64,000 nucleotides of DNA, from positions 1,044,575-1,108,574 of the forward strand of contig CP070837.1 in assembly GCA_020341815.1 (NCBI GenBank), written 5' to 3'. The notes under the pieces were generated by a model. The model saw only the letters and a list, made by a program, of their open reading frames with translations. It was not told the DNA's origin and did not search any database. The stretch's first letter is position 1, and each line of letters begins with the position of its first letter. A program made the position numbers and the translations under genes. The stretch is from Candidatus Omnitrophota bacterium (lineage in GTDB: Bacteria; Omnitrophota; Gorgyraeia; JAFGHF01). This document shows positions 1,126 through 61,318 of the stretch, piece by piece.

Positions 1126-2613
1126 ATGTTCGATCTAAATATAGGCGTAATGTCCGTTATCGCCAGCATCACAATCGTCAGCGCCTTTATTTATCTGGTT
1201 ATCCTTACCGAAAGACAGAGAAGAAGCAGACAAAGCCTGCAGCGCTCTTTGGATAAGCTAAAGAAGGCCTACGATGAATTAGACGAACAGGCAAAAATTA
1301 TCGTAAAGAAGGACCTGGAGCTTAATAAAACCCAGGAAGAATTGGATAAAAAACTTAACAGTCTTTATACCTTGCATAAATTAACCAAAGCCATCAGCTC
1401 CACTTTCGATACAGAAAAATTATTTTCCCAGATTAATAAATCATTTATCTCGGAATTGGGATTTGATAAGGGCTTGATTGTCCTGATAGATAAAGGCACG
1501 AAGGAGCCGTCCTTTCCTGTGGCCGTAGGTTATCCTGCCGAAAAACAGGAAGAAATTAAAAAGTTTTTAATCCGGGAAAGTGTACTGGATAAAGTTAATC
1601 AGCCTTTATTGCTCGATACCAGCCTTTCGCTCGGCGGCGCAAAAGAAGAACTGTTTCGATTGCTTGATTTATCCTCTCTTTGTCTGGTGCCGATTATATC
1701 ACAGGAAGCCAAGCTCGGCCTGCTTATGGTAGGCACAGAACTTCCTTATGTCAGGGCCACCGAAGGCGACCTGGAAATCCTATCTATCCTTGCCGGACAG
1801 ATTGCTGCCGGCGCCGAAAACGCCAAGCTTTACGAAGAGCTCTGGCTATCGCATCAACACCTGGAGCAAAGAGTAACTCAAAGAACACAGGAGTTGGCCT
1901 CGGCCAATGAGAAGCTTAAAAAGATAGATAAATTAAAGTCGGAATTTGTCTCGGCGGTCTCCCACGAATTACGCACGCCCTTGACTTCCATTAAAGGCTA
2001 TGCCGCTATCCTGATGGCGGGAAAACTGGGGGCGGTACCTCATCCGGTCAAAGAACGTCTGAATAAAATCAATAAACATTCCGACAGCCTGACCAAGCTC
2101 GTCAATGACCTTTTGGATATCTCCAGAATCGAATCGGGCAAAGTAGGAATGAGATTACAAAAACTCCACCTAAAAGATGCGCTGGATGAAGTCCTGGACA
2201 TAATGGCGCCGCAAATAAAAGATAAAAAAATTCAGCTTTCTGTGGAAGGAATCGATAAACTCCCTGCCTGTATGGGAGATAAGGTTCAACTGACGCGAGT
2301 CCTGACCAATTTATTAGGCAATGCCATTAAGTTTACTCCCGAAGAAGGAAAAATATCCATCAAAGCCAAAAGCAACAAAGACTTCCTGCAAATAGATATC
2401 CGCGACTCCGGTATCGGCATTGCCGAGAAAAACCTGGCAAATATTTTTGAAGAGTTCTATCGTGAAGACAACGCCGTTAACCAGCAGGTAAAGGGAACGG
2501 GCCTGGGACTTTCCCTGGTTAAGCGTATCATAGAGGCGCACAAGGGTAAAATCTGGGCCAGCAGCAAACCCGGCAAAGGCGCGATCTTCAGCTTCACATT
2601 ACCTAAGGCATAA
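1126..2613 (+). CDS. sensor histidine kinase (TM, coiled coil, GAF-like region, HisKA, HATPase_c)
   Basis: N-terminal hydrophobic segment. H-box SHELRTPLTSIKGYAAIL. N/G boxes LLGNAIKFT and GTGLGLSLVKRIIEAHKGKIW. Confidence 0.88.
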   Translation: MFDLNIGVMSVIASITIVSAFIYLVILTERQRRSRQSLQRSLDKLKKAYDELDEQAKIIVKKDLELNKTQEELDKKLNSLYTLHKLTKAISSTFDTEKLFSQINKSFISELGFDKGLIVLIDKGTKEPSFPVAVGYPAEKQEEIKKFLIRESVLDKVNQPLLLDTSLSLGGAKEELFRLLDLSSLCLVPIISQEAKLGLLMVGTELPYVRATEGDLEILSILAGQIAAGAENAKLYEELWLSHQHLEQRVTQRTQELASANEKLKKIDKLKSEFVSAVSHELRTPLTSIKGYAAILMAGKLGAVPHPVKERLNKINKHSDSLTKLVNDLLDISRIESGKVGMRLQKLHLKDALDEVLDIMAPQIKDKKIQLSVEGIDKLPACMGDKVQLTRVLTNLLGNAIKFTPEEGKISIKAKSNKDFLQIDIRDSGIGIAEKNLANIFEEFYREDNAVNQQVKGTGLGLSLVKRIIEAHKGKIWASSKPGKGAIFSFTLPKA

Positions 2614-2736
2614 ATAGTCGCTGGTCGCTAGTATCTAGTATCTAGTTAAAAACTTTTTTATATAATCTTTAATATTTATAAGTGTTTTTATTGTTTTTTA
2701 TTTTACTAAATACCAGATACTAGCGACTAGATACTG
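2614..2736. repeat. palindromic intergenic element, copy 1 (inverted arms of TAGTCGC/TAGTATC heptads around an AT-rich core)
   Basis: Left arm atagtcgctggtcgctagtatctagtatctagtt (2614-2647). Right arm accagatactagcgactagatactg (2712-2736) is its near reverse complement. A near-identical copy is at 14277-14389. Confidence 0.6.
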
Positions 2737-2758
2737 TTGAGAACGGAGTGAGCAACGA

Positions 2759-3688
2759 ATGGCAAAAAAACGCATATTAATAGTTGATGACGACCCGGAT
2801 ATCTTAGACGTGCTGCGTCTGGCTATTCCGGAAGAAGAATATGAAGTAGTCGAGGCGCATGATGGACAAGAGGCCCTGGATAAGGCATATGAGCGCCCCC
2901 CGGATCTAATTATTCTGGATTATATTATTCCCAAGATAGACGGCCGCAGCGTCTGCCAGAAGCTAAAAAAAGATATCCTCTTACGCCACATGCCTATTAT
3001 TATGCTGACCGGAAAGGGTGAAGTAAAAGATAAGGTCGAAGGATTAGACGCCGGAGCAGATGATTATATCGTTAAGCCTTTCGAACCGCAGGAGCTCTTA
3101 GCGCGCATCAGGATGATTCTCAGGCGCAGCCAGATAGATTTAGATGCCGCTCCCTTAACCCGCCTTCCCGGAAACGTCTCCATCTTCAATGAAATCGACA
3201 GAAGAATTAAAAACAGGGAGAAATTCGCGGTCGGCTATATCGATATGGACAAGTTCAAAATCTTTAACGATAAATACGGCTTTACCTGGGGAGACCGCAT
3301 TATCCAGGAAAGCGCCCGTGTCATCGTAAAGACAGTGGAAGAAAAAGGCGACCCCGATGATTTCGTCGGGCATATCGGCGGGGATGACTTCGTAATAGTT
3401 ACCTCTCTTGCCACTATCGAAGAAATCTGCCGGCAAATCATCAAAGAGTTTGACGAAGTGACTAAAAAGCTCTACAACCCCCAAGACCTGAAAAAAGGCC
3501 ACATCATAGGTAAAGACAGGCAGGGAAAGACCGTTAAGGTAGGGCTGATTACTATTTCCATAGGCGTAGTTACCAATGAGCACCGCAAGTTTACCCACGT
3601 AGCCCAGGTCGCAGAAATCGGCGCCGAGCTAAAAGAATATGCCAAGACAAAAAAGAAAAGCAATTATGTGAAAGACAAGCGTAAATAG
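2759..3688 (+). CDS. response regulator with REC domain and GGDEF-like domain (motif GGDDF)
   Basis: REC hallmarks ILIVDDDPDIL and DLIILDYIIPKIDG. C-terminal GGDEF-family pattern IDMDKFKIFNDKYGFTWGDRII ... GHIGGDDFVIV. Confidence 0.8.
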   Translation: MAKKRILIVDDDPDILDVLRLAIPEEEYEVVEAHDGQEALDKAYERPPDLIILDYIIPKIDGRSVCQKLKKDILLRHMPIIMLTGKGEVKDKVEGLDAGADDYIVKPFEPQELLARIRMILRRSQIDLDAAPLTRLPGNVSIFNEIDRRIKNREKFAVGYIDMDKFKIFNDKYGFTWGDRIIQESARVIVKTVEEKGDPDDFVGHIGGDDFVIVTSLATIEEICRQIIKEFDEVTKKLYNPQDLKKGHIIGKDRQGKTVKVGLITISIGVVTNEHRKFTHVAQVAEIGAELKEYAKTKKKSNYVKDKRK

Positions 3689-3754: not shown

Positions 3755-3841
3755 GTGCGCAGGGCGAGATTTGAACTCGCACAGGGTTTCCCCCACTACC
3801 CCCTCAAAGTAGCGTGTCTACCAGTTCCACCACCTGCGCAA
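3755..3841 (-). tRNA. tRNA-Leu (anticodon GAG), type II with long variable arm, CCA encoded
   Basis: Manual fold of the reverse complement. Acceptor GCGCAGG/CCTGCGC, D-arm GTG-GAACTGGTAGA-CAC, anticodon stem CTACT/GGTAG with loop TTGAGGG, T-arm GCGAG-TTCAAAT-CTCGC, discriminator A, CCA. Confidence 0.85.
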
Positions 3842-3930
3842 ATTGCCTCAAAAAACTACAGTAAATCTTTAGCCTCCTAAAACATTTGCTAAGTTGTCAA
3901 ATTTCTTTAAAGATGTTATCGCTGGTGATA

Positions 3931-5364
3931 TCATGATTTTTGTCTTTGCCTAACTTTCCATAAAAAATACAAGTCTTGGCTACGTATTGTTTCTTCTAGA
4001 TCACTTTTTGCCATTGTCCTTTTAGTGAGCTCTGCAATGATTTTGACTAGTCCAAGTGCACTGGCGGCAGCGATAAGTCCGTCCGGAAGAAGCCCAGAAT
4101 ACATGCCAAAAGATATAGCTCCGGTCCAAGCAATGATTTCTCGTCTTACGCCTTTAATCAATGAGCGTTGAGCTGATTTTATTCTAGTATCAAGTAAACT
4201 CAATTTAGGTCTGATTATATCTTGGAAAATTGCTTGAGCATCGCGTTTTGAAAAATTTTTACCACTTTTTCTGTATTCATTAATTGCCTTATTGAGAACA
4301 TTTCGAAATAAAATAAAAGATTCTTCCTCTCCAGCTCTAAGTTTAAGAATTTCTAAAGGATCAATATCCTCAATGAATGGAACTAAACAGGTCATATATT
4401 TTTGTATTATTTGATTCCGTTGTTCAATGTTTGGATCTAATGAGATTTCTCTCAAAAAATCAATATGGAGTATTCGTTCGGTAAGAAACGATGTATTAAG
4501 ACACTGTGCTGTTGCCAATTCAAAATTGATATTTTCGTAATTTTTTTTCGCTAGGTATTCTGCATATCCAATTTTTTTAAGAGCAGTTCTGGATAAATGA
4601 ATTTCTTTACCCTTTTTAATTTTGGCAATAATATGTGGTATTTTTTTTAAGGGCACTGGCATTTTTTCCGCTACATTAACTGTGGCTCCATGTTCAAGCA
4701 ATATTTCTGGTCCATGTGCATCTACAACATATAATCCTTTCTCCATTCTTACTGAAGCTTTGATTTGATTGTTGAATCGGTCGATTAGTTTTGTTAATGC
4801 TTTTTTTAATCTTCTATCATCTTTCTGTCCAAGAGAGTGTTTTGCTAAACAGTGCGTACAAAAATAGGGGGCTGTAATAGGGACAATCTTTTCTGCTTTT
4901 ATTAGAGGGCGTAGATAATTTAAAATAAGTAGGTCTTCAGCGAAATCTTTTTGAAATTTTCTTACATCAGATAAATTTTTTTTATTAGAGTGTTCAACGT
5001 GATCAGCTAAAAAATTCCGTATATAAACTTTATCGCTATAAAAAGCTGCGAATTGTGCCAATTGTTTTACGTAAGCCATCCTACAATCAAAAACAACGCA
5101 AGGCCATCGACTACCGCCGAGCGAAAATGAAGCAGAATGAGAAAACACAGATTCTTCCCTTGGCAATTTTTTGACAGAAGTAAGTTCCAATGATTGTTTA
5201 GAAAAATCGATAATATCGATTGGTGAGGCATGTTCAATCTGAAAAAGATTCAGTTTGCCATTACGCATAAATTTTGATTTATCAATCTGTTCAAATAAAA
5301 GATTTTTCATTATTTTCCTATTTACTGATATTAAGGAAAGGGTAAATTTACTGTTTGAATCCAA
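3931..5364 (-). CDS. hypothetical protein, 477 aa, AT-rich, no domain recognisable by eye
   Basis: Long uninterrupted ORF in a markedly AT-rich segment flanked by tRNA-Leu and tRNA-Gln. No motif I can assign. Confidence 0.5.
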   Translation of the reverse strand: MDSNSKFTLSLISVNRKIMKNLLFEQIDKSKFMRNGKLNLFQIEHASPIDIIDFSKQSLELTSVKKLPREESVFSHSASFSLGGSRWPCVVFDCRMAYVKQLAQFAAFYSDKVYIRNFLADHVEHSNKKNLSDVRKFQKDFAEDLLILNYLRPLIKAEKIVPITAPYFCTHCLAKHSLGQKDDRRLKKALTKLIDRFNNQIKASVRMEKGLYVVDAHGPEILLEHGATVNVAEKMPVPLKKIPHIIAKIKKGKEIHLSRTALKKIGYAEYLAKKNYENINFELATAQCLNTSFLTERILHIDFLREISLDPNIEQRNQIIQKYMTCLVPFIEDIDPLEILKLRAGEEESFILFRNVLNKAINEYRKSGKNFSKRDAQAIFQDIIRPKLSLLDTRIKSAQRSLIKGVRREIIAWTGAISFGMYSGLLPDGLIAAASALGLVKIIAELTKRTMAKSDLEETIRSQDLYFLWKVRQRQKS

Positions 5365-5409
5365 TCCCAGAACTCTTTAGCTTTCTTAATCTCCTCAAGC
5401 ATATCCGTA

Positions 5410-8878: not shown

Positions 8879-9928
8879 TTATATCCTTTCCAAAATCTCT
8901 TCTTCCGTGGGGATGCCTCCGCCTGCGCGGCCATAAAAATCAATCCTAGCACGCCCATTAACCGCTAAGCGCACATCCTCAACCATCTGCCCGTAGGACA
9001 TCTCGGTAACAAAAAATCTTAATTTTTTCTTTTTCTTCTTAAGTAAATCCTCAAATATGCCGACGGGGAAAGGCCAGAGACTGATGGGCCGCAAAAGGCC
9101 GGCCTTCTTACCCTTCTTACGCAGACTCTGGACCGCACTGCGGGCAATACGTGCTGTGCTTCCATAAGCTACCAAAATTATCTCACTATCCTCTAAATGC
9201 ATTCCTTCGAAGCGCTGCTCTTTCTGGGTAATCTGCGCATATTGCTTCTGGAGAACCTTATTGAATTTCTCCAGGTCCCCTTCCTGCATATAAAATGACT
9301 TTACTATATTAGGAGCCTTCCCTTTACAACCCGTCAGCGCCCAGGGTTTCTTAACCTGTTTTTTACCGGATGCACTGGAAGTAATTGTAATAGGCTCCAT
9401 CATCTGCCCCAGCATCCCATCACCCAATATTATTGCGGGCGTGCGGTATTTATCGGCGAGGTCAAAGCCTAAAAATACGAGGTTGTATGCCTCCTGAACC
9501 GAAGAAGGGGCAAGCACAATACAATGATAGTCCCCATGGCCGCCTCCTTTGGTGGCCTGAAAATAATCCGACTGAGCGGGAGCGATATTACCTAAGCCCG
9601 GTCCCCCGCGCATAATGTTTACAATCAGGCACGGCAGGCGCGCCCCGGCCAGATAAGAAATCCCCTCCTGTTTAAGGCTGATTCCCGGGCCTGAAGAAGA
9701 GGTCATTGCCCGCCGGCCGCTGGCCGCAGCTCCCATTACCATGCTAATAGCGGCCAGTTCGCTTTCTGCCTGCACAAATACACGATTTGCCCGGGGCATG
9801 TTTTCAGCCATATAAGCGGTAAGCTCATTTTGGGGCGTAATCGGATAACCGGCGTAAAAATCGCATCCGGCGCGAATTGCTCCTTCAGCAATGGCTTCAT
9901 TTCCGCTTATCAGTATCTTCTCACGCAT
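8879..9928 (-). CDS. 2-oxoacid:ferredoxin oxidoreductase alpha subunit
   Basis: ISGNEAIAEGAIRAGCDFYAGYPITP N-terminus typical of POR/KOR alpha. Confidence 0.85.
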   Translation of the reverse strand: MREKILISGNEAIAEGAIRAGCDFYAGYPITPQNELTAYMAENMPRANRVFVQAESELAAISMVMGAAASGRRAMTSSSGPGISLKQEGISYLAGARLPCLIVNIMRGGPGLGNIAPAQSDYFQATKGGGHGDYHCIVLAPSSVQEAYNLVFLGFDLADKYRTPAIILGDGMLGQMMEPITITSSASGKKQVKKPWALTGCKGKAPNIVKSFYMQEGDLEKFNKVLQKQYAQITQKEQRFEGMHLEDSEIILVAYGSTARIARSAVQSLRKKGKKAGLLRPISLWPFPVGIFEDLLKKKKKKLRFFVTEMSYGQMVEDVRLAVNGRARIDFYGRAGGGIPTEEEILERI

Positions 9929-9930
9929 AC

Positions 9931-10131
9931 TTACTTATACACCTCGATACAACAATCCGGGCATATCCGGGCGCAAAGCGCACAGGCAGAACAGTCTCCC
10001 TCGGTAAAACAGACAAAGCGCACCCCGCGCTTATTTAAAGATTTACTTAAGGTAATCAGCTTTTTGGGACAACTATCTATGCAAAGACAACAACCCTTGC
10101 ATTTTTCTTTTTTTATTTTTATCTTACCCAT
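9931..10131 (-). CDS. 4Fe-4S ferredoxin-type delta subunit of 2-oxoacid:ferredoxin oxidoreductase
   Basis: Two CxxCxxCxxxCP cluster motifs in 66 aa. Immediately upstream of the alpha subunit. Confidence 0.75.
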   Translation of the reverse strand: MGKIKIKKEKCKGCCLCIDSCPKKLITLSKSLNKRGVRFVCFTEGDCSACALCARICPDCCIEVYK

Positions 10132-13482: not shown

Positions 13483-14265
13483 TTATTTTACTTTTTCCTG
13501 TATTCTCTCGATAGAGACGGCCTTGCCTGTTTTCTCATCTATATCCAGCACCACCCCGTGCAACTGTACATTTTCGCTAGCCATCTCAAAACGCACGGGC
13601 ATCTGGGTAACAAAACGGGCCAAAATCTGCTCAACTTTCCTGCCGATTACAGAGTCATAAGGCCCGGTCATCCCTAAATCTGTAATGTATGCGCTGCCGC
13701 GGGGGAGGATTTTCTCGTCCGCAGTCTGCACATGGGTGTGCGTGCCTAAAACCGCACTCACCATCCCGTCGAGAAACCAACCCAGGGCAATCTTTTCGCT
13801 GGTGGCCTCTGCGTGCATATCCACCAGGATTACAGGTGTCTTTTCTTTGAGTTCCTTGGCGGCCTCTTTTGCCCGCTTGAAAGGACAATCCAAAGTAGAC
13901 ATAAATACCCGGCCTTCTAAGTTTATCACTCCCACTTTCTTGCCTTTTTTCGTCTCGACAATACCATAACCCCTGCCGGGAGAGCCTTTGGGATAATTTG
14001 CCGGACGCAGGAGCCTCATTTCCGAATCAAGGATTTCCAGGACTTCCTTTCTCTTCCAGATATGGTCGCCGCTGGTAAGCATATTAAGGCCATATCCGAA
14101 AAGTTCCTCGGCAATCTCCGGAGTTACCCCTGAACCCCCGGCGGCATTTTCGGCGTTAGCGATGGACAAATCAATCTTGTATTTCTTTACCAGTCCCGGA
14201 AGCAGCAGATGCACAGCCTCTCTGCCGGGCTTGCCGACTATATCTCCAATGAATAGTATTCTCAT
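13483..14265 (-). CDS. YmdB-like metallophosphoesterase (TIGR00282 family)
   Basis: MRILFIGDIVGKPGR ... GDH metallophosphoesterase motifs. A ymdB-rny pairing is conserved in many bacteria. Confidence 0.75.
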   Translation of the reverse strand: MRILFIGDIVGKPGREAVHLLLPGLVKKYKIDLSIANAENAAGGSGVTPEIAEELFGYGLNMLTSGDHIWKRKEVLEILDSEMRLLRPANYPKGSPGRGYGIVETKKGKKVGVINLEGRVFMSTLDCPFKRAKEAAKELKEKTPVILVDMHAEATSEKIALGWFLDGMVSAVLGTHTHVQTADEKILPRGSAYITDLGMTGPYDSVIGRKVEQILARFVTQMPVRFEMASENVQLHGVVLDIDEKTGKAVSIERIQEKVK

Positions 14266-14276
14266 ATAAACTCCTT

Positions 14277-14389
14277 GTATCTAGTCGCTAGTATCTTGTA
14301 TCTCGTAAAACAAAAACATAAAAAGCTTTAAAATTTAAAAATTAAGAAAGCTTTTAACTAGATACTAGATACGAGCGACAAGCGACTAT
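14277..14389. repeat. palindromic intergenic element, copy 2 (inverted relative to copy 1)
   Basis: Its right arm aactagatactagatacgagcgacaagcgactat is the reverse complement of copy 1's left arm with 2 mismatches. AT-rich core. Fills the whole ymdB-rny spacer and overlaps the rny stop codon. Confidence 0.6.
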
Positions 14390-15960
14390 TTTGCGTATTC
14401 TATCGCCCTGGTCTCGCGAATCACCATAACCTTAATCTGACCCGGATACTCCAGGCCCTCTTCAATCTTTTTTCTAATCTCACCCGCCAGAACTGCGGCT
14501 TCGGCATCGCTTATCTTATTGGGCTGGACAATGACTCTCACCTCTCTGCCTGCCTGGATAGCATAGGCCTTGCCCACACCCTTGAAGGAATCGGCGATGG
14601 ATTCGAGCTTCTCCAGACGCTTCACATAGGATTCCAATGTCTCGCGCCTTGCCCCCGGACGGGTTGCGCTTACGGCATCAGCAGCCTGAACCAATACGGC
14701 CAGGAGCGATTTTGGTTCGGTGTCCTGATGATGGGCGGCGATAGAGTTTACTACAAGGTCCGACTCTCCGTATTTTTTTGCCAGCTCCGCGCCGATTCCG
14801 GCGTGGGTGCCTTCTACCTCATGGTCTACGGCCTTACCGATGTCGTGCAGAAGCCCCACTCTGCGCGCCAGGGCAAAATCTATCTTTAATTCCGAAGCCA
14901 TCACTCCTAATATATACGCCACTTCCTTGGAATGCTGTAACACATTTTGCCCGAAACTGGTCCTGTATTTAAGCCGTCCCAGGAGCTTTATCTCCTCCGG
15001 ATGCAACCTGTGCACGCCGGCGTCAAAGGCGGCGCGCTTGCCTTCGTCTCTGATAGTCGCCTCCATCTCCTGCTTAACGCGGGTTACCACTTCTTCGATG
15101 CGCGCAGGATGGATGCGCCCGTCGGTAATTAACCGCTCCAGGGTAATTCTGGCAATCTCTCTTTTTACCAAATCAAAGCCGGAAAGCGTAACCGCCTCCG
15201 GCGTATCATCGACAATCACGTCAATGCCCGTAGCAATCTCCAAAGCGCGGATATTTCTCCCCTCGCGGCCGATAATCCTGCCTTTCATTTCGTCGCTGGG
15301 AAGGCTAACCACGCTAACCGTAGACTCTACCGTATGGTCGGCGGCACATCTTTGAATAGCTGCGCTGATTATCTCCTTGGCCTTTTTCTCGGAGGCCTCC
15401 TTTGCTTCCTCTTCTACGCGCTTAATCATGGATGCAGCCTCAAGCCTGGCCTCGCCCTCCATCCTCTCCAGAAGGATTTTCTTTGCCTGTTCCGCGGTCA
15501 GCCCGGAAACCCTTTGCAGCCTCTGCTTCTCTTCCTCGATTAGATTATTGAGCTCTGCATTCTTTCCGTCGAGCTCTTTTTCGCGATAGGTTATATTTTT
15601 CTCTCTGCCCAGGACCTGTCTTTCTTTCTTGTCCAGAATATCAACCTTGCGGTCGATATTCTCTTCCTTCTGGTGCATTCTCTTTTCTAAAGCGGCGAGC
15701 TGCTGCCTTGTCTCTTTGGTCTCTTTTTCGAATTCCGCCCGCGTCCTGTAAAGCAGGTCTTTGGCCTCTAATTTCGCCTCCCGACGGATGTTCTCGGCCT
15801 CTCTGCCTGCACCCTGAATGAGCTCCTGGGCCTTGGCCTCGGCAACCCTGACTTTTCTTTCCGCGACATACTTGCGAATAAGATACCCGATAGCAAAAAA
15901 AGTCGCAGCGCACAGGGCAATAAGAGCCACTAGCTGTATAGAATTGATTTCTGTTATCAT
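14386..15960 (-). CDS. rny: ribonuclease Y
   Basis: N-terminal TM helix, long coiled coil, KH domain ([15 protein letters not shown]), HD domain (HSKEVAYI ... LLHDIGK). Confidence 0.9.
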
Positions 15961-19425: not shown

Positions 19426-20768
19426 TCTTTTATCTTCCTCTCATAACCGATAGGTGTAGGGATATAGTATTTCTTCTCTGCGGGTAAGTATTCCTGGGGC
19501 ACAAAATGGTTTTTGTAATCATGGGCGTATTTGTAATCCTGGCCATGCCCCAATCGCTCTGCGCCCGGGTATGTCCCTACCCTTAAATGCTTGGGCACCT
19601 CAAGCGTCTTTTTCTGCTTCACATCGCGCAAGGCCTTTTCTATTCCCAGATAGGCGGCATTGCTTTTGGGTGCGCAGGCAATATAAACTGCGGCCTGGGC
19701 CAGGGGAATTCGCGCCTCGGGCATACCGACAAATTCAGAAATTTGTAACGCCGCATTAGCCACGACTAATGCTTGAGGGTCGGCATTACCCACGTCCTCC
19801 GCCGCGCAGATACATATCCTGCGCGCAATAAAGCGGGGGTCTTCTCCGGCATAAATCATCTTTGCCAGCCAATAAAGAGCAGCATCGGGGTCGGAGCCAC
19901 GCATACTTTTAATAAAAGCGGAAATCGTATCGTAATGGGCACTGCCTGCCTTATCATAAACAACTGCCTTCTTCTGAATAGATTCCTCGGCAACCTTTAA
20001 CGTAAAGTTTATTCTGCCCTCTTTATCGGGCTTAGTGGTAAGCGCCCCCAGCTCCAGGGCATTAAGCGCCCGGCGGGCGTCACCGTCTGAGGCCCCGGCC
20101 AGATATTTCAAGGCGGCGGCTTCCATTTTGATGGGCAATTTTCCTAAGCCCCGTTCTTTATTCTTTAAAGCGGCATTTAAAATGGCAAGGACCTCTTCCT
20201 GCTTTAAGGGGTTTAAGGAAAAGACGATGGAACGCGAAAGAAGCGCCGCTACTATAGAAAAAAACGGGTTGTGCACCGTGGCTCCGATAAGCACAACATT
20301 AGCCTCTTCCACGTCCGGCAAAACAACATCCTGCTGGGCCTTGTTAAAGCGGTGGATTTCATCGATAAAAAGCGTCGTCCTTTTCCGGAGAGTATTTTTT
20401 CGCTGTCTGGCCTGTGAAATTATCCTGCGCAGCTCATCCACATTGGAGGTGGTGGCATTTATTCTTTCGAAGTGGGAGCTGGTGGCATTGCTGACGATAT
20501 GGGCAAGGCAGGTCTTTCCTGTTCCCGGCGGGCCGTAAAGAATTAAAGAGCTGATCCTGTCTGCTGTGATTGCCCGGGTAAGAAGCTTATCCGGCCCTAA
20601 GATGTGCCTCTGCCCCACAAAGTCCTTTAGATTTTGCGGACGCATACGCACAGCCAGCGGCATAAGCTTATTATTTTTTGTCTTGTTAGGTTTCTTTTCG
20701 AACAGGTCCATTGAGCTCATAAAAAAATCCCCGCGCACGCCGTGCGAGTTTGATAATTTTGAACCCAT
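19401..20768 (-). CDS. rarA: replication-associated recombination protein A (AAA+ ATPase)
   Basis: Walker A GPPGTGKT. MgsA/RarA C-terminal pattern. The true start is probably the internal Met at about 20720 (MSSMDLFEK). Confidence 0.85.
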   Translation of the reverse strand: MGSKLSNSHGVRGDFFMSSMDLFEKKPNKTKNNKLMPLAVRMRPQNLKDFVGQRHILGPDKLLTRAITADRISSLILYGPPGTGKTCLAHIVSNATSSHFERINATTSNVDELRRIISQARQRKNTLRKRTTLFIDEIHRFNKAQQDVVLPDVEEANVVLIGATVHNPFFSIVAALLSRSIVFSLNPLKQEEVLAILNAALKNKERGLGKLPIKMEAAALKYLAGASDGDARRALNALELGALTTKPDKEGRINFTLKVAEESIQKKAVVYDKAGSAHYDTISAFIKSMRGSDPDAALYWLAKMIYAGEDPRFIARRICICAAEDVGNADPQALVVANAALQISEFVGMPEARIPLAQAAVYIACAPKSNAAYLGIEKALRDVKQKKTLEVPKHLRVGTYPGAERLGHGQDYKYAHDYKNHFVPQEYLPAEKKYYIPTPIGYERKIKEWLEKLRP

Positions 20769-20938
20769 TTTTATAGGTGGGTACCCTCACAGATACGTTA
20801 AGCCGCATCTAGATTCAGGTTCCCTATAAGATGGTGTTGGCTCAAAAGTTACCAAATCAGCACGCGCATGGCAGGGAATCTATTTAAAGTATATCATACC
20901 CCGCTGGCAAATACAAGTTGTCTTTCTGAGGCTCTCAA

Positions 20939-52418: not shown

Positions 52419-52496
52419 GACCCCATCGTCTAGCCCGGCCTAGGACAAGAGCTTTTCAAGCTCTCGACACCGGTTCGAATCCGGTTGGGGTCGCCA
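52419..52496 (+). tRNA. tRNA-Glu (anticodon TTC)
   Basis: Acceptor GACCCCA/TGGGGTC, D-arm GTCT-AGCCCGGCCTA-GGAC, anticodon stem AGAGC/GCTCT with loop TTTTCAA, T-arm ACCGG-TTCGAAT-CCGGT, discriminator G, CCA. Confidence 0.85.
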
Positions 52497-52545
52497 TCAA
52501 TTCGGACACTCTTGTAACTTAAACAGTTATAAGAGGTTAAATAAA
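52482..52545. repeat. left direct repeat (putative attL) spanning the tRNA-Glu 3' end plus 49 bp
   Basis: 64 bp. Matches 63801-63865 with ~5 mismatches and 1 indel: cggttg(c)gggtcgccatc[a/g]attc[g/a]gacactcttgtaactta..cagttataagaggttaaataaa. Confidence 0.7.
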
Positions 52546-52710
52546 GTAAGGGGAGTTGAAGTACTTCAAAAAAGGAGTATTTTGGCTTCCTTTTTTATTT
52601 TATCTCAAAAGCATAGTTCAATTTTTGAATTCAGCTTTAAGCAAAGCATAATTCAAAATTTGAACTCTCATATATTAAATAAATAGATACTTAAATAGAA
52701 GACTTAAACT

Positions 52711-53190
52711 ATGAGAACCATTTACCCATTTGGCTGGATAGACAGAGACCTTAAAGAATTAGGATTTTTAAAGGAAATGTCTCCTACAGCGGCAAAGCTT
52801 TATATTCTTTATATCCTGGCCGGTGGCGCAAATGGCAGAAGCTGTTACAGCGCTAAGGCCTTAAACGAAGCAACCGGCCTGGCAAACGCCACAATATGCA
52901 AAGCAAGACAGGAGCTTCAAGATATGGGTCTTATTGCAGTAGAGAAGGAAATGATACCGGGTCGCAAGAACAAGAAGCCAAAGATATGGGTAGAGCTCCA
53001 GGATCTTCCGGTTGACAGGATGGAGGTTAAACAACGCAGAAACACCGCCCATAAAGAACTTACCACTAAGAGAATCAGGAAAAGGAGATCGGAATTCATT
53101 GAACAGCCGAGACTTCTTTGTGAAAGGCCATATATGGCTCCAGATTGGCTGAAACAAGGTGTAAAACGAGCAAGGAGGCCTTATGTTTAG
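52711..53190 (+). CDS. winged-helix DNA-binding protein (regulator or replication-initiator-like)
   Basis: Predicted HTH around SAKALNEATGLANATICKARQELQDMGLI. Basic C-terminal tail. Preceded by paired inverted-repeat sites. Confidence 0.5.
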   Translation: MRTIYPFGWIDRDLKELGFLKEMSPTAAKLYILYILAGGANGRSCYSAKALNEATGLANATICKARQELQDMGLIAVEKEMIPGRKNKKPKIWVELQDLPVDRMEVKQRRNTAHKELTTKRIRKRRSEFIEQPRLLCERPYMAPDWLKQGVKRARRPYV

Positions 53191-53407
53191 CCTGCGCCGC
53201 TGGCTCAAATATACCCTAAATCCCCCAGAATATATTTGGATAAAGGCCATTTTGCTCAAAGAAACCCGCAAAGCCATCTTAATTGAGTTCGATGGCAAGC
53301 AAATCTGGCTCCCGAAGGTCTGGATTTTACGTATCAAACGAATTCAATGCAACCCTACCATAAGCATCAAAATATCCCAGTATCACTGGGCCAAGAAGCT
53401 CGGGTAA
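53183..53407 (+). CDS. hypothetical small protein (74 aa)
   Basis: Overlaps the previous gene by 8 nt. No recognised motif. Confidence 0.35.
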   Translation: MFSLRRWLKYTLNPPEYIWIKAILLKETRKAILIEFDGKQIWLPKVWILRIKRIQCNPTISIKISQYHWAKKLG

Positions 53408-53541
53408 TTTCTGTATTCAGCCTCGTTTTTTTCATGTATTCCCCTTTACAACCCTCTCAAAAGCATTTATAATAGTAAGCCAACTAGACGCTAAATGCTA
53501 GCAAAAGGGCTTATTTTACCGGTCCAAGAAGTATTTAATAC

Positions 53542-53571
53542 TTGAAAACAGAGCTTTTTCAGGAGTATAAT
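53542..53571 (+). promoter_or_regulatory. sigma70-type promoter for the methyltransferase operon, with a 15-bp palindrome over the -35 box
   Basis: TTGAAA (53542-47), 17-bp spacer, TATAAT (53566-71). Palindrome aagtatttaatactt at 53529-53543. Confidence 0.5.
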
Positions 53572-53610
53572 ATATAGCTGTCGAATGTCTATATAAAGCT
53601 GGAGAAATGT

Positions 53611-54669
53611 ATGCCTTGCAATTTTAGCGTTATTGATTTATTTTCTGGATGTGGCGGACTGTCGTACGGCTTTGTTAGGTCGGGGTATAATGTCTTGCTG
53701 GGTATAGATAATGATCCGGTAGCCCTCAAAACTTTCAAGCTCAACCATTCCGGATCGGATACTATAATAGCTGATATTGCAGGCATTTCCGGACAGGATA
53801 TCCTGAAAGCTGTGGGCAGAAGACAAATAGACGTTGTTATAGGCGGACCGCCATGTCAGGGATTTTCGCTTTCTGGCCCCAGAAAATTTAGTGATCCCAG
53901 AAACAAATTATACCTTTCTTTTATAAGGCTGGTTAAAGAACTGAAGCCTAGGGCATTTCTGATTGAGAATGTTCCCGGCATTATGAGTCTCTACAAAGGA
54001 CAGATAAAAGACGAAATTATTGGCAGATTTTCGAAAATGGGTTATAAAGTGAGTTGCAGTAAGCTGAATTCGGCAGACTACGGCGTTCCCCAACTGAGAA
54101 ACAGGGTTTTTTTTGTGGGAATATATAAGGCGAAAGAGTACTTTAAGTTCCCCCCTCCAGTGTTAAATAAAGAATGTTATATTGTTGCCGAAGAAGCCAT
54201 CGGCGATCTGCCAGGTTTGGAGGATCGTATCGGCACAGATCCAGCCCCTTATCCCGGAAACGGCGAACTCACGAGATATCAGAAATATATGAGGCAAGGT
54301 TCTCAGTATATACATAATCATATCGGAACGCGCCATGCCGAAATGACAAAGCGCGTTATATCTCTCGTTCCGGAAGGATGTAATTATAAAAGTCTGCCGC
54401 CGGAATATGCCAATACCAGAAATTTTCATGTTGCATGGACAAGGTTCCACAGCAAAAAGCCGGCACCGACCGTTGACACTGGCCATAGACACCACTTCCA
54501 TTATTTATATGACAGGGTTCCTACTGTCAGAGAATGCGCAAGGCTGCAATCTTTTCCGGACATTTTTATTTTCATCGGAAATAAATCACAACAATATTCC
54601 CAGGCAGGAAATGCAGTTCCTCCATTCACGGCACAAGCTATTGCGGAAGAAATGAGGCATTATTTATGA
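53611..54669 (+). CDS. DNA (cytosine-5)-methyltransferase, copy 1
   Basis: Motif I DLFSGCGGLSYGF, motif IV GGPPCQGFS, motif VI ENVPG, motif VIII QLRNRVFFVG, motif X GNAVPPF. Confidence 0.9.
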   Translation: MPCNFSVIDLFSGCGGLSYGFVRSGYNVLLGIDNDPVALKTFKLNHSGSDTIIADIAGISGQDILKAVGRRQIDVVIGGPPCQGFSLSGPRKFSDPRNKLYLSFIRLVKELKPRAFLIENVPGIMSLYKGQIKDEIIGRFSKMGYKVSCSKLNSADYGVPQLRNRVFFVGIYKAKEYFKFPPPVLNKECYIVAEEAIGDLPGLEDRIGTDPAPYPGNGELTRYQKYMRQGSQYIHNHIGTRHAEMTKRVISLVPEGCNYKSLPPEYANTRNFHVAWTRFHSKKPAPTVDTGHRHHFHYLYDRVPTVRECARLQSFPDIFIFIGNKSQQYSQAGNAVPPFTAQAIAEEMRHYL

Positions 54670-56081
54670 GATACCAGATACCAGAAGAATATTATTGTAG
54701 GTTGCACCACATACGTCCGAGGTTTAAAAATAATATAGAAAATGTTCTTATTTATATGGCTACCGAGATATCTAAAATTCGAAGAAAGAGCAAAAGAGAA
54801 TTCGATAAAGAAGTTAATAAAGCAATTAAAAAATTCCCAGGGAATGCAACGAAAAAGATTAAGACAATCAACAATTGGCGCACAGAAATCTCCTCTCTGT
54901 TTGGTTTTATCCGCACCAGCAGATCAAAAGATAAGTCGTGGCCAGCACTGAGGGCGACAGAGCTGGCGGATAAACAGGATTTGGTGCATTCGTTCAAGCT
55001 TTTTCTGTACCATTTTCAGTATCCCGGAGGACATCTCAAGCCTCACGAAAATGCTGAAGTTATCAGGCAAGGTATCAAATTCAGACCGGCACCTTTTATT
55101 TTGAAATTACTGCATAGCGCTGAAAAAAATGAAAAGACCAGGAAAGGTATCACCAAGCCCGAGCTGACCCACTGTGTTTTCAATGACCTGAGAGTCACGC
55201 GTGACGGGGAAGGTCCGGAATCCGTATGGGAGCGCATTAAAGAAAACAGGAAGAAAAAGGTTCAATATGACTGCAGGGGGGATGTTATACGTTATGCCGG
55301 AGATATTCTCGACTATATGGTAACGGCTAACTTACTTACTCCCCACGGGCAGAAATATTTTATAAATACCCTGGAGAAAAACGCGGTGCAGAAATTTATG
55401 GAGTCAAAAGATTGGTTTAGCAAGTATGACCGTTATATAGATAAAAGAAATGTTACCTTAGCGCAGATAAATAGTCTTCAGGAAGCATGGTTTGAATATG
55501 TAAATATGCCCAGGGAAGAGATATTCGAAACGGATGCTTTGGCTTTTATCGCCAGAGACGAGACAGAATATGCGAAGTTGCGAAAACAGATCGTAAGCAG
55601 TTTTATGGAAAAGCTCGAAGAGCCTAGTGAAATTGGCACGAAGGAAATAGGGGATGTGGGCGAAAATCTTGTGCACGGGCACGAATGTATGAGGATTAAA
55701 TTGCGCGAGCGTACAGACTTAATACATCTTATTCGGTGCATACCGGATCATCTCGCTGCCGGTTACGATATCAGATCTGTCGAGGCAGATGCTACATACA
55801 GATATATAGAGGTTAAAACTACCATAAGCAACAGCGAAATTGATTTTACCAGAATTCATCTGACGCCTGTGGAATGGACTGCGGCAGACACTCTTAAAAG
55901 CAGATACTTTGTCTACAGACTGCTCTTAAGCAAGAGGTCAAGAAAATTATTTCTGCTTCGCGATCCGGTGGGCCAGTACAAACAAGAAAAACTATCAATG
56001 ACGCCGCGCAACGGGGCAGATATTGTTTTCAGCCCTGCAAGATGCGGTGAATATACGGAGCTTCTGGAGTGGAGAGATTAA
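54666..56081 (+). CDS. protein with C-terminal DUF3883 (restriction-endonuclease-like fold) domain and uncharacterised N-terminal region
   Basis: C-terminal GENLVHGHE ... GYDIRSVEADATYRYIEVKTT ... IHLTPVEWTAA ... YFVYRLL matches the DUF3883 pattern. ATGA-coupled to the upstream MTase and overlaps the downstream MTase. Confidence 0.6.
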   Translation: MRYQIPEEYYCRLHHIRPRFKNNIENVLIYMATEISKIRRKSKREFDKEVNKAIKKFPGNATKKIKTINNWRTEISSLFGFIRTSRSKDKSWPALRATELADKQDLVHSFKLFLYHFQYPGGHLKPHENAEVIRQGIKFRPAPFILKLLHSAEKNEKTRKGITKPELTHCVFNDLRVTRDGEGPESVWERIKENRKKKVQYDCRGDVIRYAGDILDYMVTANLLTPHGQKYFINTLEKNAVQKFMESKDWFSKYDRYIDKRNVTLAQINSLQEAWFEYVNMPREEIFETDALAFIARDETEYAKLRKQIVSSFMEKLEEPSEIGTKEIGDVGENLVHGHECMRIKLRERTDLIHLIRCIPDHLAAGYDIRSVEADATYRYIEVKTTISNSEIDFTRIHLTPVEWTAADTLKSRYFVYRLLLSKRSRKLFLLRDPVGQYKQEKLSMTPRNGADIVFSPARCGEYTELLEWRD

Positions 56082-57484
56082 GAATAGCTTCGCTTTTCTG
56101 TGGTTGCGGCGGCACGGACGCGGGAATGCTCGGGGGGTTTACTTTCCTCGGCAGTAAATATGAAAAGCATCCTGTACAAATCGTTTACGCGAACGACATA
56201 GATGCCTCCGCAGCCAGAATATACGATGCAAATTTTAAACACAAATGCCTGGTGAAAGATATCCGGAAGATAAAAGCAGCAGAAATACCGGATCATGACA
56301 TATTGGCCGGCGGATTTCCCTGCCAGTCGTTTTCCATAGTTGCGCAGAATCCGCCTCGTCTGGGATATAGAGATGAAAACGGCCGGTTATTCTTTGAAAT
56401 GTGTAGGATTTTGCGTAATAAAAAACCGTTAGCCTTTGTTGCCGAAAACGTCAAAGGTATTTTATCGGCAAACAATAAACATGCTTTTCCTCTTATAATA
56501 AAAGAGTTTGAAAAATGTGGATACATAGTTTCCTGGTGTCTCCTGAACGCGGCTAATTATGGCATTCCGCAGCGAAGGGAACGTGTTTTTATTGTCGGAA
56601 TAAGAAAAAATATAGGCAGGAAGTTTTATCCTCCGGATTCTACCCACAGGCCGGAAAGCGATCTCTTGGCCGAAAGAAAATGGGTATCATTAAAAAGAGT
56701 TGTCTTTCCGCATGCCAAGGTGCCGAAGAAATATTTTTTTTCCGACAGGGCGCATAAGGGTCTTCATAATTCCAATCCCGCAATGAATAAAGGCCGGGCG
56801 CAGGATCCCGAGAAAGTTTGTAATACTGTGGGAGCGCACCTTGCTAAAGTCAGCCTTAACAGCACGGATCCCGTTTTAAAGATAAATGGTCGTTTCAGGC
56901 GCTTCGCGCCCAGAGAAGTGGCCAGAATTCAGTCTTTCCCTGATACTTTCAGGCTGCCGGGACCGGACACGGCTAAATACAAGGCTCTGGGGAACGCAAT
57001 TCCGCCGGTGTTGATGTGGCATATGACAGAAAGACTGCTCGAGATATTGGTTAAAGGTCCGGCCGAAGATGCAAGGACCGGCCGGGAAAAAAGAAGCTAT
57101 AATATGGCGCGAATTTGTTCAAAAAACACATTAATAGAACGTATTCTTGATGAAGCATTAAAGTCCTTAGGCTTGGAATATAAAAGAAATGTCAAAGGGC
57201 TTCCCGGAAAACCAGATATAGTTTTTGAGAAAAATCGTCTGGCGGTTTTCTGTGACAGCACGTTTTGGCACGGCAGACATTATCCCGAATGCGTAGAACG
57301 GATTAACACAAATAAAAGTTTCTGGAAAAACAAGATATTGAGAAACATGGAACGAGATAAAAAGACAACCAAAGAATTAAGATATCTAGGCTGGAAAGTG
57401 CTTCGTTTTTGGGATACCGATATAGAGAACAGAATGCAAGCCGTGATAGGAAAAATAGAAAAAATATTGGGTGCCCAGAAATGA
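56069..57484 (+). CDS. DNA (cytosine-5)-methyltransferase, copy 2, fused to a C-terminal Vsr-like very-short-patch-repair endonuclease domain
   Basis: MTase motifs FCGCGGTDAGM, GGFPCQSFS, ENVKG, QRRERVFIVG, GNAIPPV. C-terminal ~130 aa PDIVFEKNRLAVFCDSTFWHGRHYPE ... FW.NK ... RD ... LGWKVLRFWDTD matches the Vsr signature. Confidence 0.8.
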   Translation: MERLRIASLFCGCGGTDAGMLGGFTFLGSKYEKHPVQIVYANDIDASAARIYDANFKHKCLVKDIRKIKAAEIPDHDILAGGFPCQSFSIVAQNPPRLGYRDENGRLFFEMCRILRNKKPLAFVAENVKGILSANNKHAFPLIIKEFEKCGYIVSWCLLNAANYGIPQRRERVFIVGIRKNIGRKFYPPDSTHRPESDLLAERKWVSLKRVVFPHAKVPKKYFFSDRAHKGLHNSNPAMNKGRAQDPEKVCNTVGAHLAKVSLNSTDPVLKINGRFRRFAPREVARIQSFPDTFRLPGPDTAKYKALGNAIPPVLMWHMTERLLEILVKGPAEDARTGREKRSYNMARICSKNTLIERILDEALKSLGLEYKRNVKGLPGKPDIVFEKNRLAVFCDSTFWHGRHYPECVERINTNKSFWKNKILRNMERDKKTTKELRYLGWKVLRFWDTDIENRMQAVIGKIEKILGAQK

Positions 57485-57999
57485 TATATGAAAGCCGCAC
57501 ACTAGGAGAGTCGCCATTTGATTTTGATATTAGCTGGCCCTTTCCGGAAGGACAGAGAAAGTTGCTTGAAGCAGCCGTAACTAAAATAAAAATAGAATCA
57601 GCATCCCAAATTGATAAATTTGAAGAATCTTTCAATGAGGAGATTGCGCAGCATGGTTATATGTGGGACAAGAAAGATAAAAGCACATGTTCTCTCTGGC
57701 GGCCCGATTTCAGAATGTCTGTTGATTTCTATAACGCAAAGGAAAAAATTGCAGTTGAAATTGAAAAGACAGAGGTTAAAAGAATTATCCACGACGTATT
57801 AAAGCTAGTGAACGGCTCCTTAACCTTTGTGCCCAAAGTGAGATATGGAGTAATTATTCATCCGCACACATATAAACGCACATCAGGTAAAGAGAGTGTA
57901 TTTGCATCACGGGTTGTAAGCGAAGTTTCCTTCTATTTCAGGCGTTTGATCGGAAACACCTTATTAAATGATGTTCTTTTTATAGTTTATAATTTTTGA
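57481..57999 (+). CDS. hypothetical protein (172 aa), candidate PD-(D/E)xK nuclease
   Basis: Likely start MIYESRTLGE is ATGA-coupled to the MTase-Vsr stop. RPDFRMSVDF ... IAVEIEKTEVK is weakly PD-ExK-like. Confidence 0.4.
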   Translation: MIYESRTLGESPFDFDISWPFPEGQRKLLEAAVTKIKIESASQIDKFEESFNEEIAQHGYMWDKKDKSTCSLWRPDFRMSVDFYNAKEKIAVEIEKTEVKRIIHDVLKLVNGSLTFVPKVRYGVIIHPHTYKRTSGKESVFASRVVSEVSFYFRRLIGNTLLNDVLFIVYNF

Positions 58000-58148
58000 G
58001 CTGGTTTAAGGTTTTTCTTCGTCGGTAGAGTTTTCATGTTTCTTTGACTCGAATTCCCCGATAGAAAAGTGTTATGTTCCCAGAATTGCTGCACTTTATC
58101 TAGACGGCAAGAGGAAAACTTGGTTGTATAGGAATAAAGGCAAATATC

Positions 58149-58436
58149 TTGATTGGACGCGATTTTGGAATAACTTCTCGTTTTTTAATTAGAGGATTGA
58201 ATATAAAGAAGCTCCTGGCTCTGGCAATTCTAATCTGCCTAATATCCCTAACTGTTTTTGGCCAAGAAAAGAATTACCAAATGAAAACAGGCATATTAAA
58301 GACTTATGGAGAACCATTTTGGAAAGGCGAAGGCAAGCAGCGAGAAGTTTGGTATTACCCACGCCAAAGAATGTTTATTTATTTTGAAGGAGATAGAGCT
58401 ATTGAGATTGATGTAATTGCAGGGGAGAAGACATAA
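58149..58436 (+). CDS. small exported or lipoprotein-like hypothetical protein
   Basis: Hydrophobic N-terminus LLALAILICLISLTVFG. 95 aa. Confidence 0.4.
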   Translation: MIGRDFGITSRFLIRGLNIKKLLALAILICLISLTVFGQEKNYQMKTGILKTYGEPFWKGEGKQREVWYYPRQRMFIYFEGDRAIEIDVIAGEKT

Positions 58437-58439
58437 CGA

Positions 58440-59099
58440 ATGGAAATAATAAAACAAACATATTGTGCGGTTTTAAATAGCTTAAACCAAAATGCTAAAG
58501 ATAACTTTGATTATTTTTGTTCTGAAATTCAAAGAGTTGCAAACGAATATGGGATAGCGAATAAAGTCACTAAACTTGAACTTATCTGCAAAGGGAACCT
58601 TTATCGAAATATAGCAATAAGCTCCGGAAGAGTAAATATAAAAAATAATAATGATAAAACCTACAACTTCTGGGCTTCCTGTTCATTGTTTGTTACTAGG
58701 AAAGAAAGAATTACTGCAATAGTGCAACATGAATTGATGCATATTAAAGATATGGAGGATAAAGAATTTAAATTTGATAAAGAACTGTGGGACGGGTTGC
58801 TTGAAGACAAAATAATAGCCACATCGATTAGGCATATTTGGGACATCTATATAGATTCACGGATTGCGAGAACGAGTAAAATTGGTATTTCTAAACAAGA
58901 TAGGCTCGATGGGATCCTGCGTCTCGCTTTAAATAAGAATTTTCAATTAAGACATTGCATTTGGGAAATTGAAGATGATTTTGATTATCTTTGGAATATT
59001 GAGAAAATAGATTTTCCGACTATCATTGATAAAGCTAAAGAATTAAAAGAGAAAGTAGCGAATAAAGGTATGGCCCACCCGTCCGAAGAAACTTTATGA
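58440..59099 (+). CDS. HExxH-motif putative metallopeptidase
   Basis: HELMH motif (IVQHELMHIKD). 219 aa. AT-rich. Confidence 0.45.
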   Translation: MEIIKQTYCAVLNSLNQNAKDNFDYFCSEIQRVANEYGIANKVTKLELICKGNLYRNIAISSGRVNIKNNNDKTYNFWASCSLFVTRKERITAIVQHELMHIKDMEDKEFKFDKELWDGLLEDKIIATSIRHIWDIYIDSRIARTSKIGISKQDRLDGILRLALNKNFQLRHCIWEIEDDFDYLWNIEKIDFPTIIDKAKELKEKVANKGMAHPSEETL

Positions 59100-59889: not shown

Positions 59890-59963
59890 TAGCAGGGAGA
59901 AAAAATAAATCCGCCCCCCTGCTTTTTACTATTTCTATAACTTATTGAAGATAGTCCATACTA

Positions 59964-61311: not shown

Positions 61312-61318
61312 TAAAACG

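Follow-up and report, generated by a model that had tools for sequence, protein, structure and literature searches.

The stretch of DNA analysed here, called the window below, comprises 64,000 nucleotides of a Candidatus Omnitrophota bacterium (GenBank assembly GCA_020341815.1, contig CP070837.1, positions 1,044,575 to 1,108,574), and all element counts given for the window refer to this 64-kb stretch. Two of its operon junctions are each filled by a short palindromic element made of heptanucleotides. Copy 1 lies between a gene encoding a histidine kinase (HK) and a gene encoding a response regulator (RR) with a GGDEF domain, and copy 2 lies between rny, which encodes RNase Y, and ymdB (Table 1). 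These gene identities, like that of a further neighbour with a FIST domain, were confirmed by Pfam, and the best-matching named proteins for both YmdB and the response regulator all belong to Candidatus Omnitrophota.

Table 1. Positions in the window of the two elements, of their parts and of the flanking genes
Feature	Position	Strand	Remarks
Histidine kinase gene	1126-2613	+	upstream of copy 1; Pfam HisKA/HATPase
Copy 1, whole element	2612-2738	+	similarity to copy 2 begins at AAATAGTCGC; absent from relatives L135 and L131
Copy 1, 5' arm	2615-2649	+	five tandem heptads TAGTCGC TGGTCGC TAGTATC TAGTATC TAGTTAA
Copy 1, AT-rich core	2650-2706	+	T-rich on the sense strand
Copy 1, 3' arm	2707-2736	+	complementary heptads TAAATAC CAGATAC TAGCGAC TAGATAC (2707-2734)
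Rearranged spacer 3' of copy 1	2737-2758	+	TGA 2738-2740; ribosome binding site GGAG 2745-2748; L135 has here only GGAGATT
Response regulator gene with GGDEF	2759-3688	+	downstream of copy 1; Pfam Response_reg+GGDEF
ymdB	13483-14265	−	downstream of copy 2; Pfam YmdB
Copy 2, homologous extent	14275-14391	− (transcribed strand)	layout as in copy 1
Copy 2, inserted part	14276-14385	−	clean 110-nt insertion when compared with the closest relative, L130; limits placed to within 2 nt (AG)
Copy 2, 3' arm on the transcribed strand	14275-14309	−	followed directly by the ymdB ribosome binding site AAGGAG and the ATG at 14265
Copy 2, AT-rich core	14310-14353	−	small inner stem (AAAAGCUUU/AAAGCUUUU), then a U-rich run
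Copy 2, 5' arm on the transcribed strand	14354-14388	−	TAGTCGC TTGTCGC TCGTATC TAGTATC TAGTTAA; the TAG of the first heptad is also the rny stop codon (14386-14388)
rny (RNase Y)	14386-15960	−	upstream of copy 2; Pfam RNase_Y_N/KH/HD

The elements measure 110-127 nt, are AT-rich and non-coding, have stop codons in all frames and contain no transposase gene. In both copies, tandem heptads of the types TNGTCGC and TNGTATC, four to five units per arm, are inverted around an AT-rich core. A repeat finder aligned the two arms of copy 1 with each other (38 nt, 82% complementary, 50 nt apart), and TAG is present in all three frames of the 5' arm of this copy. The arms of copy 2, whose heptads at 14275-14309 read TTGTATC TAGTCGC TAGTATC TTGTATC TCGTAAA on the + strand, are paired in the predicted fold. 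The 7-nt period is strong in the arms (lag-7 z 6.1 and 7.4) and not significant in the AT-rich cores of the elements (lag-7 z 0.7 for copy 1). An earlier, sequence-only reading of this DNA had described a repeated palindromic element filling operon junctions, with heptad arms in inverted orientation around an AT-rich core, and both copies read as it stated. The limits that it gave for copy 1 also held, the element starting at 2614, immediately after the HK stop codon (2611-2613), and ending at 2736, 22 nt before the RR start at 2759.

With one fixed threshold, the two elements are the only sites in the window that show arrays of 7-nt period, and no array with a period of 5, 6, 8 or 9 nt was found in the 64 kb at the threshold used for 7. 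In the same way, the 15-mer TAGTCGCTAGTATCT, searched with at most three mismatches, gives 12 matches for 0.95 expected, nine of them inside the two elements, and none of 100 shuffles reached 12 matches. A candidate third copy at 54663-54685 (AGATACC repeated 2.4 times) sits where two open reading frames (ORFs) of restriction-modification genes overlap; because it lies inside coding sequence, it was rejected as a chance match.

The two copies share 83% identity over 123 nt, and the repeat finder pairs them as inverted repeats (49 nt at 92% and 40 nt at 90%). The left arms match at 37 of 39 positions, the cores at 35 of 50 and the right arms at 31 of 39, so the similarity of 32/34 first proposed for the arms holds, approximately, for the left arm only. 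The similarity extends to edges that are not made of heptads (AAATAG, CTAGTTAAA and TTTTAC), which argues for a common origin by copying and not for independent growth. The core is T-rich on the sense strand in both copies, whose orientation relative to transcription is identical, and AAATAG (native at the rny site) precedes both copies while GGAG follows both.

The possibility of an assembly artefact, raised by the sequence-only reading, is answered by the independent Logan assembly of SRR14739666. One of its contigs (L113) carries the whole of copy 2, with 100% identity over 4477 nt, and the right half of copy 1 is present on another (L136). The elements thus do not stem from an artefact of one assembly. 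Position 1 of L136, a short-read contig of the same organism, corresponds to window position 2663, within the core of copy 1, and no complete record was found for the histidine kinase protein encoded upstream, with either start codon tried. Together, this start and this missing record are compatible with an assembly break due to further copies that share the left half of the element.

The decisive result of the analysis is provided by the empty sites found in relatives. The closest relative (Logan SRR24270831; L130 and L135) shares 92-93% DNA identity with the window over syntenic genes. Its rny-ymdB spacer is 8 nt long (…CAAATAGGAGTGTATATG) and its HK-RR spacer 7 nt long (TGA GGAGATT ATG). 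More broadly, the rny-ymdB spacer measures 8-9 nt in L130, L131 and L133, whose YmdB proteins are 97%, 89% and 88% identical to that of the window, and the HK-RR spacer measures 7 nt in L135 (response regulator 98% identical) and in L131. The more distant relatives L131 (76-82% DNA identity) and L133 likewise lack both copies. In the BLAST comparison with L130, the alignment of the window ends at 14275 and restarts at 14386, while L130 is ungapped between 9991 and 9992, which makes copy 2 a clean insertion of 110 nt, placed between the rny stop codon TAG and the ribosome binding site (RBS) AGGAG. The boundaries of copy 1 are blurred by additional changes relative to the empty site. The HK-RR junction occupies 152 nt in the window in place of 14 nt in L135, the stop codon at its left edge is TAA instead of TGA, and the spacer between RBS and ATG also differs. 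The TGA found to the right of copy 1 may be the ancestral HK stop codon, displaced. Both copies are recent insertions, later than the divergence from the 92-93% identical relative, and each entered an operon junction of 7-8 nt, downstream of the stop codon of one gene and upstream of the Shine-Dalgarno sequence of the next. Both insertions left the reading frames and the RBS intact.

The same rny-ymdB junction is occupied in another way in L134, a more distant relative within Omnitrophota (YmdB 84% identical), where the spacer measures 114 nt (9887-10000) and consists of a different AT-rich heptad palindrome (AAAATCA…/TTTTGCA TTTTGAT…; lag-7 z 6.6). Such an unrelated palindrome would be in line with elements that grew in place, by replication slippage with a 7-nt preference and by template switching on quasi-palindromes, without any transposition. 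The variation of arm length and heptad order among relatives points in the same direction, and heptanucleotides are reported to be the commonest tandem repeats of 5-11 nt in many bacteria (PMC4679880). Growth in place fails to explain left arms that match at 37 of 39 positions, non-repeat edges included, and cores that are 70% identical at two unlinked loci, as well as a full-length homologue, 72% identical, in another metagenome-assembled genome (MAG). Furthermore, the insertion is all-or-none, no intermediate being seen in the relatives. An origin by growth in place alone appears highly improbable.

The elements probably belong, with some reserve, to a family of small non-coding and non-autonomous mobile palindromes in Candidatus Omnitrophota, similar to MITEs (miniature transposable elements with inverted repeats) or to REPINs, with heptad arrays as terminal inverted repeats and an AT-rich core. 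We infer this from the empty sites, the shared edges, the presence of members in another MAG and the MITE-like anatomy. Presence or absence at orthologous sites, which is taken as a mark of mobility in MITEs, is seen here at both junctions. A MITE-like element had been one of the candidate roles proposed from the sequence, and it receives direct support from the absence of both copies from the orthologous junctions of the closest and of more distant relatives; the initial observation is thereby confirmed and its interpretation partly supported. Since some of the features that define the named families are lacking (see below), the elements are described as working like MITEs and not as members of a named family. 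As regards copy number, there are two copies in 64 kb, and homologues occur in another MAG (L010, L022 and L112). The two copies differ from each other by 17%, whereas the host differs from the relative without them by only 7-8%. This suggests that the copies probably came from separate source copies, unless the element evolves fast. Separate source copies would imply further copies elsewhere in the genome, whose existence is probable.

Several points weigh against such a mobile family. Only two copies were seen, within 64 kb of the genome. The ends of copy 2 share no more than the dinucleotide AG when compared with the empty site of L130, so that there is no clear target-site duplication. The L134 palindrome at the same junction could reflect growth in place, or junctions that act as hot spots. 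The arms are conserved far above the core (95% versus 70%), a contrast that one would not usually expect of a recent passive copy and that could indicate a function or homogenisation. Moreover, the search revealed no autonomous element with these ends, and the pairs of arrays separated by wide gaps (0.25-4 kb) are neighbouring hairpins that enclose no transposase. Transposases are also absent among the 25 commonest of the 139 Pfam families found in a limited sample of 150 ORFs flanking heptad arrays, these 25 families being housekeeping ones.

The transcripts of both copies are predicted to form a long imperfect hairpin. On the sense strand, the RNA fold of copy 1 reaches -41.8 kcal/mol (z -7.0) and that of copy 2 -31.5 kcal/mol (z -2.4), and the corresponding DNA folds reach -19.4 and -19.3 kcal/mol (z -4.9 and -3.3). 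The downstream RBS is unpaired in both predicted folds. Searches of Rfam gave no match at the gathering threshold for the elements and, in E-value mode, generic long-hairpin matches only, far under threshold (plant microRNA precursors and WsnRNA46). Such hairpins could have been selected by the host as intercistronic RNA stem-loops that set stability, processing or translation for each cistron, with a double-strand RNase or RNase Y as possible agents, their spread being secondary. The strength of the predicted hairpin in both copies, the free RBS and the higher conservation of the arms than of the core are consistent with this explanation, as is the placement inside operons, just past stop codons and just before an RBS, which is shared by related hairpins in other loci (L076, L089 and L115). 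Against it, the close relatives lack the element at both junctions, and the antisense strands are predicted to fold about as strongly as the sense strands. Furthermore, the differences between the copies fall at the second position of the heptads and are not compensatory: complementarity at this position is limited to about 54% of cases, and every heptad of copy 2 is mismatched there, i.e., every 7 nt. In L010, the two arms do not mirror each other in the sequence of their ATC and CGC heptads, and the orientation of the element relative to transcription is not fixed. A stem-loop maintained primarily for the host is thus rather unlikely, even if transcript processing or stabilisation by the predicted hairpin is plausible. 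The adjacency of copy 2 to the RNase Y gene looks incidental, and nothing apart from this adjacency was found to support a link between the element and RNase Y. Any heptad of the form T.GT..C should be able to pair with any other at four constant positions, so that the stems would tolerate slips of register, as in the folds of L010, L115 and L076.

The core might also act as an internal promoter or as a terminator or attenuator module. It is AT-rich and, in copy 1, contains a perfect TATAAT, while in copy 2 a small inner stem is followed by a U-rich run. Consensus scans found no sigma-70-like promoter (-35 and -10 hexamers with a spacing of 16-18 nt) inside either element, and a simple scan found no intrinsic terminator (G+C-rich stem followed by a T run) inside either. 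The TATAAT is not conserved in copy 2. Furthermore, related hairpins lie within ribosomal-protein operons and the lepA-lepB operon, where termination would harm. The statement that the element is not a simple terminator therefore stands, the internal promoter or operator that had been suggested is not supported, and a promoter or terminator role is scarcely credible.

The search for relatives beyond this genome relied on a scan of one genome per species with the pattern GTCGCTNGTATCTNGTAT, which fits all four arms and has 16 specified bases. The at least 112 loci retrieved have to be set against about 280 matches expected by chance, which makes the scan unsuited to counting copies, and the GTATC/GTCGC vocabulary common to phyla is partly imposed by the search pattern. 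Among the matches listed, Planctomycetota, Nitrospirota, Omnitrophota, some Clostridia MAGs and Bacteroidota are richly represented, runs of at least four heptads occur in 49 of 114, and 14 of these 49 runs have reverse heptads at no more than 260 nt (null 4.3%). With the TAG-type pattern, a metagenome scan gave 16 loci, the source organism not being among them; viral contigs gave 19 loci, mostly coding or due to chance, and plasmids no match.

One of these relatives is a full-length homologue in the Omnitrophota MAG KR11_S3.mb.51 (L010, 5514-5642; 72% over 128 nt), in which many relatives limited to the arms occur as well. The orientation of its core relative to the downstream gene is opposite to that of the two copies, so the common orientation noted in the sequence-only reading holds for these two and not as a rule of the family. 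The same locus carries, at the lepA-lepB junction (1938-1970), an unpaired array TAGTCGC TAGTCGC TTGTCGC TAGTATC whose first TAG is the lepA stop codon. Another such relative of the arms in this MAG is a short-loop heptad hairpin between rpsQ and rplN (L112 419-480, equivalent to L115 996-1057), and the reading frame of S17 enters the array and stops at its third TAG. A 3' tail with RBS (GGAGTGA..AACGA) apparently shared by copy 1 and L115 was marginal (p ~0.05) and was not retained. On other Omnitrophota contigs (L025 and L076), several heptad hairpins are grouped in a few kilobases, some of them 3-6 nt past a stop codon and 4-14 nt before the next start codon. The heptads of Omnitrophota are not all related. 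For instance, ATAGGTG/CACCTAT forms an inverted pair at L076 1255-1327 and ACTGGCA a direct array at L025 2761-2795; the common feature of these arrays is the 7-nt period and not one motif. A longer element of about 190-270 nt, with heptad ends TTGTTGC/TAGTTGC/TAGTCGC and an AT-rich core that is itself heptad-periodic (lag-7 z 5.6), was observed in two length variants in a 'Clostridia' MAG and three metagenome contigs (L114 10155-10348, L117 2535-2805, L129 and L001 97-290).

The inverted pairs found in about 1 Mb of fetched loci all have the same polarity: 27 (19 unique) have T.GT..C first, and none is reversed. They thus read 5'-TNGTNNC…GNNACNA-3' (e.g., L076 610-679, L025 4540-4656 and L089 1941-2014), a reading common to the pairs of Omnitrophota, Planctomycetota, Nitrospirota, Bacteroidota and Clostridia MAGs. 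Palindromy does not force this polarity, because the reversed arrangement is a distinct structure; a fixed polarity is what would be expected if the ends are read in one orientation. It is also in line with a binding array for an oligomeric protein that recognises one motif per 7 nt, either on RNA, as do HutP and TRAP with their XAG triplets, or on DNA, as a nucleoid protein or global regulator of the kind proposed for Geobacter metallireducens. The 7-nt period is strict, the T.GT frame is constant while the other positions vary, and UAG, UGG or CAG recurs every 7 nt in both arms on a single RNA strand. HutP binds two XAG clusters of 7-nt spacing around a stem (PMC2425495), and paired arrays of five heptanucleotides in Geobacter, for example between proB and proA, were interpreted as regulator sites (PMC2700814). 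Against this, the arrays of other phyla carry TCG and not XAG, the linker measures 44-57 nt compared with 12-17, with no terminator to counteract, the motifs would lie buried in the duplex, and the same genes have no such sites in relatives. The analysis identified no candidate protein. A binding array appears quite improbable. More generally, the close relatives that lack the element and the absence of compensatory changes weaken both the stem-loop and the binding-protein explanations.

In a broader, if unlikely, scheme, the elements would belong to an unrecognised class that spans several phyla. Its members would be heptad inverted repeats of fixed polarity, 5'-(TNGTNNC)n … (GNNACNA)n-3', set between stop codon and RBS in operons and spread or read by a dedicated machinery, for which the candidates are a hairpin-specific single-strand transposase that does not duplicate its target and a protein that, as an oligomer, recognises a single motif in each 7 nt. 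Such a class may include Omnitrophota, Planctomycetota, Nitrospirota, Bacteroidota and some Clostridia MAGs.

For the mobile palindromes of Omnitrophota themselves, the following course of events can be proposed. Because the TAG-rich arms would supply stop codons to each of the three frames of both strands, a gene would tolerate an insertion at its 3' end; the TCG-type relatives lack this property. The junction would still be transcribed through, and the operon mRNA would gain an imperfect hairpin of about 25-30 bp with a large AT-rich loop. This hairpin could block exonucleases, serve as substrate for a double-strand RNase or loosen translational coupling. On balance, such an insertion is probably almost neutral, a selfish element that is tolerated. 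Movement might proceed by single-strand hairpin transposition of the IS200/IS605/RAYT type or, alternatively, by copying between junctions through the microhomology AAATAG … GGAG, both being speculative. The near absence of target duplication, at most 2 nt here, is compatible with either route.

Other features of the window include an integrated island. A low-GC region of about 11.3 kb (52419-63865) looks like an integrated island with att sites. It is bracketed by a direct repeat of 58 nt (52488-52545 and 63808-63865, 93%), the first copy of which overlaps a tRNA-Glu gene at its 3' end. The island encodes a BpuJI-like restriction enzyme, two C5 cytosine methylases (one fused to Vsr), a Ser/Thr kinase (59964-61130, − strand) and a large serine recombinase (61985-63622). 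The latter is the sole recombinase in the window and belongs to this island at tRNA-Glu, which is unrelated to the elements. Just 5' of its gene, a direct repeat of 39 nt (…TTAGCATATGCCAAAGCAA) is present in three copies at 61263-61609. Another region, of 1.57 kb (3840-5409, GC ~36%), separates tRNA-Leu from tRNA-Gln and contains an ORF of 477 aa (3931-5364, − strand) that matches no Pfam family; the 92% identical L135 lacks this region, and both tRNA genes adjoin there. Finally, a 6S RNA gene lies at 20724-20880 on the − strand (Rfam RF00013, 72.4 bits).

Heptanucleotide repeats near genes have been noted for decades (cyanobacteria, Beggiatoaceae, Geobacter, Nostoc) and, to our knowledge, no mechanism has been established for them. 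The cyanobacterial STRR are another type of tandem heptanucleotide repeat. The present case offers a cleaner handle than most: the unit is discrete, measures about 115 nt and has defined edges, its insertion is dated and both empty sites are available. A placement rule (stop codon, element, RBS) is joined by a polarity rule, the latter of which holds across phyla. If the elements are mobile, they would represent a MITE type with tandem 7-mer ends and almost no target duplication, which would point to an unusual mobilising enzyme. If the hairpin affects expression, tightly coupled operon junctions in very compact genomes could be rewired by a single insertion. If neither applies, they are an ordinary small selfish repeat in an uncultured lineage. 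Should the multi-phylum class exist, heptad arrays would be a general signal of intercistronic control or mobility and not slippage debris.

Compared with known systems, the elements share many features with MITEs, whose anatomy is defined in PMC10969869. Like Correia/NEMIS, RUP and QMITE2, they are shorter than 500 bp, non-coding and intergenic, with terminal inverted repeats, an AT-rich body and a stable stem-loop transcript, and their presence differs between close relatives. They differ from them in that the inverted repeats are tandem heptad arrays and not one unique sequence, target duplication is not clear (at most 2 nt), no related insertion sequence was identified, and insertion occurs precisely between stop codon and RBS. 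REPINs, i.e., REP doublets mobilised by RAYT, are likewise extragenic and made of two inverted units and a spacer that form one long hairpin; their target is described as not duplicated and a single-strand hairpin mechanism is suspected (PMC3337134; PMC3733652). Here the arms are tandem heptads and not self-folding palindromes of 20-40 nt, CTAG alone being self-complementary. Neither copy contains the GTAG or CGTC tag, or its complement, that enters into the definition of REPs (PMC3733652), and no RAYT gene was seen in the 64-kb window, which is only partly annotated.

The HutP sites of the Bacillus subtilis hut leader also show the triplet XAG at intervals of 7 nt, grouped into two clusters around a stem (PMC2425495). 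The elements share the XAG period, but their core measures 44-57 nt whereas the hut linker measures 12-17 nt, and they contain no terminator whereas the hut sites overlap one. HutP sites depend on one dedicated regulator and locus, and the likeness is a resemblance only.

The TAACTGA repeats of Beggiatoaceae, Cyanobacteria and Bacteroidetes and the heptamers of Nostoc are intergenic runs of three to six 7-nt units near start codons, for which no function has been established and a post-transcriptional role is suspected (PMC4679880; 10.1101/2022.06.06.494920). The elements too have at least three tandem 7-nt units, are intergenic and lie near start codons. Those repeats are mostly direct arrays of a single unit, whereas here two unit types alternate and the arrays are inverted around a core, forming a discrete insertable unit. 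In the literature searched, which left out most papers of subscription journals, no paper was found on these units, on repeats of Omnitrophota or on the polarity rule, and the strings TNGTCGC and TNGTATC did not appear as repeats, the matches being primer coincidences only.

The nearest published anatomy is that of the class 3 'global regulator sites' of Geobacter metallireducens, which are pairs of five tandem heptanucleotides of the unit MTYCTGA (PMC2700814). These differ from the elements by their unit sequence and their phylum, and were interpreted without test as DNA-binding sites. They are multicopy and, like the elements described here, are paired heptanucleotide arrays that can lie between genes of the same operon, such as proB and proA, and that are absent from a sister species (PMC2700814).

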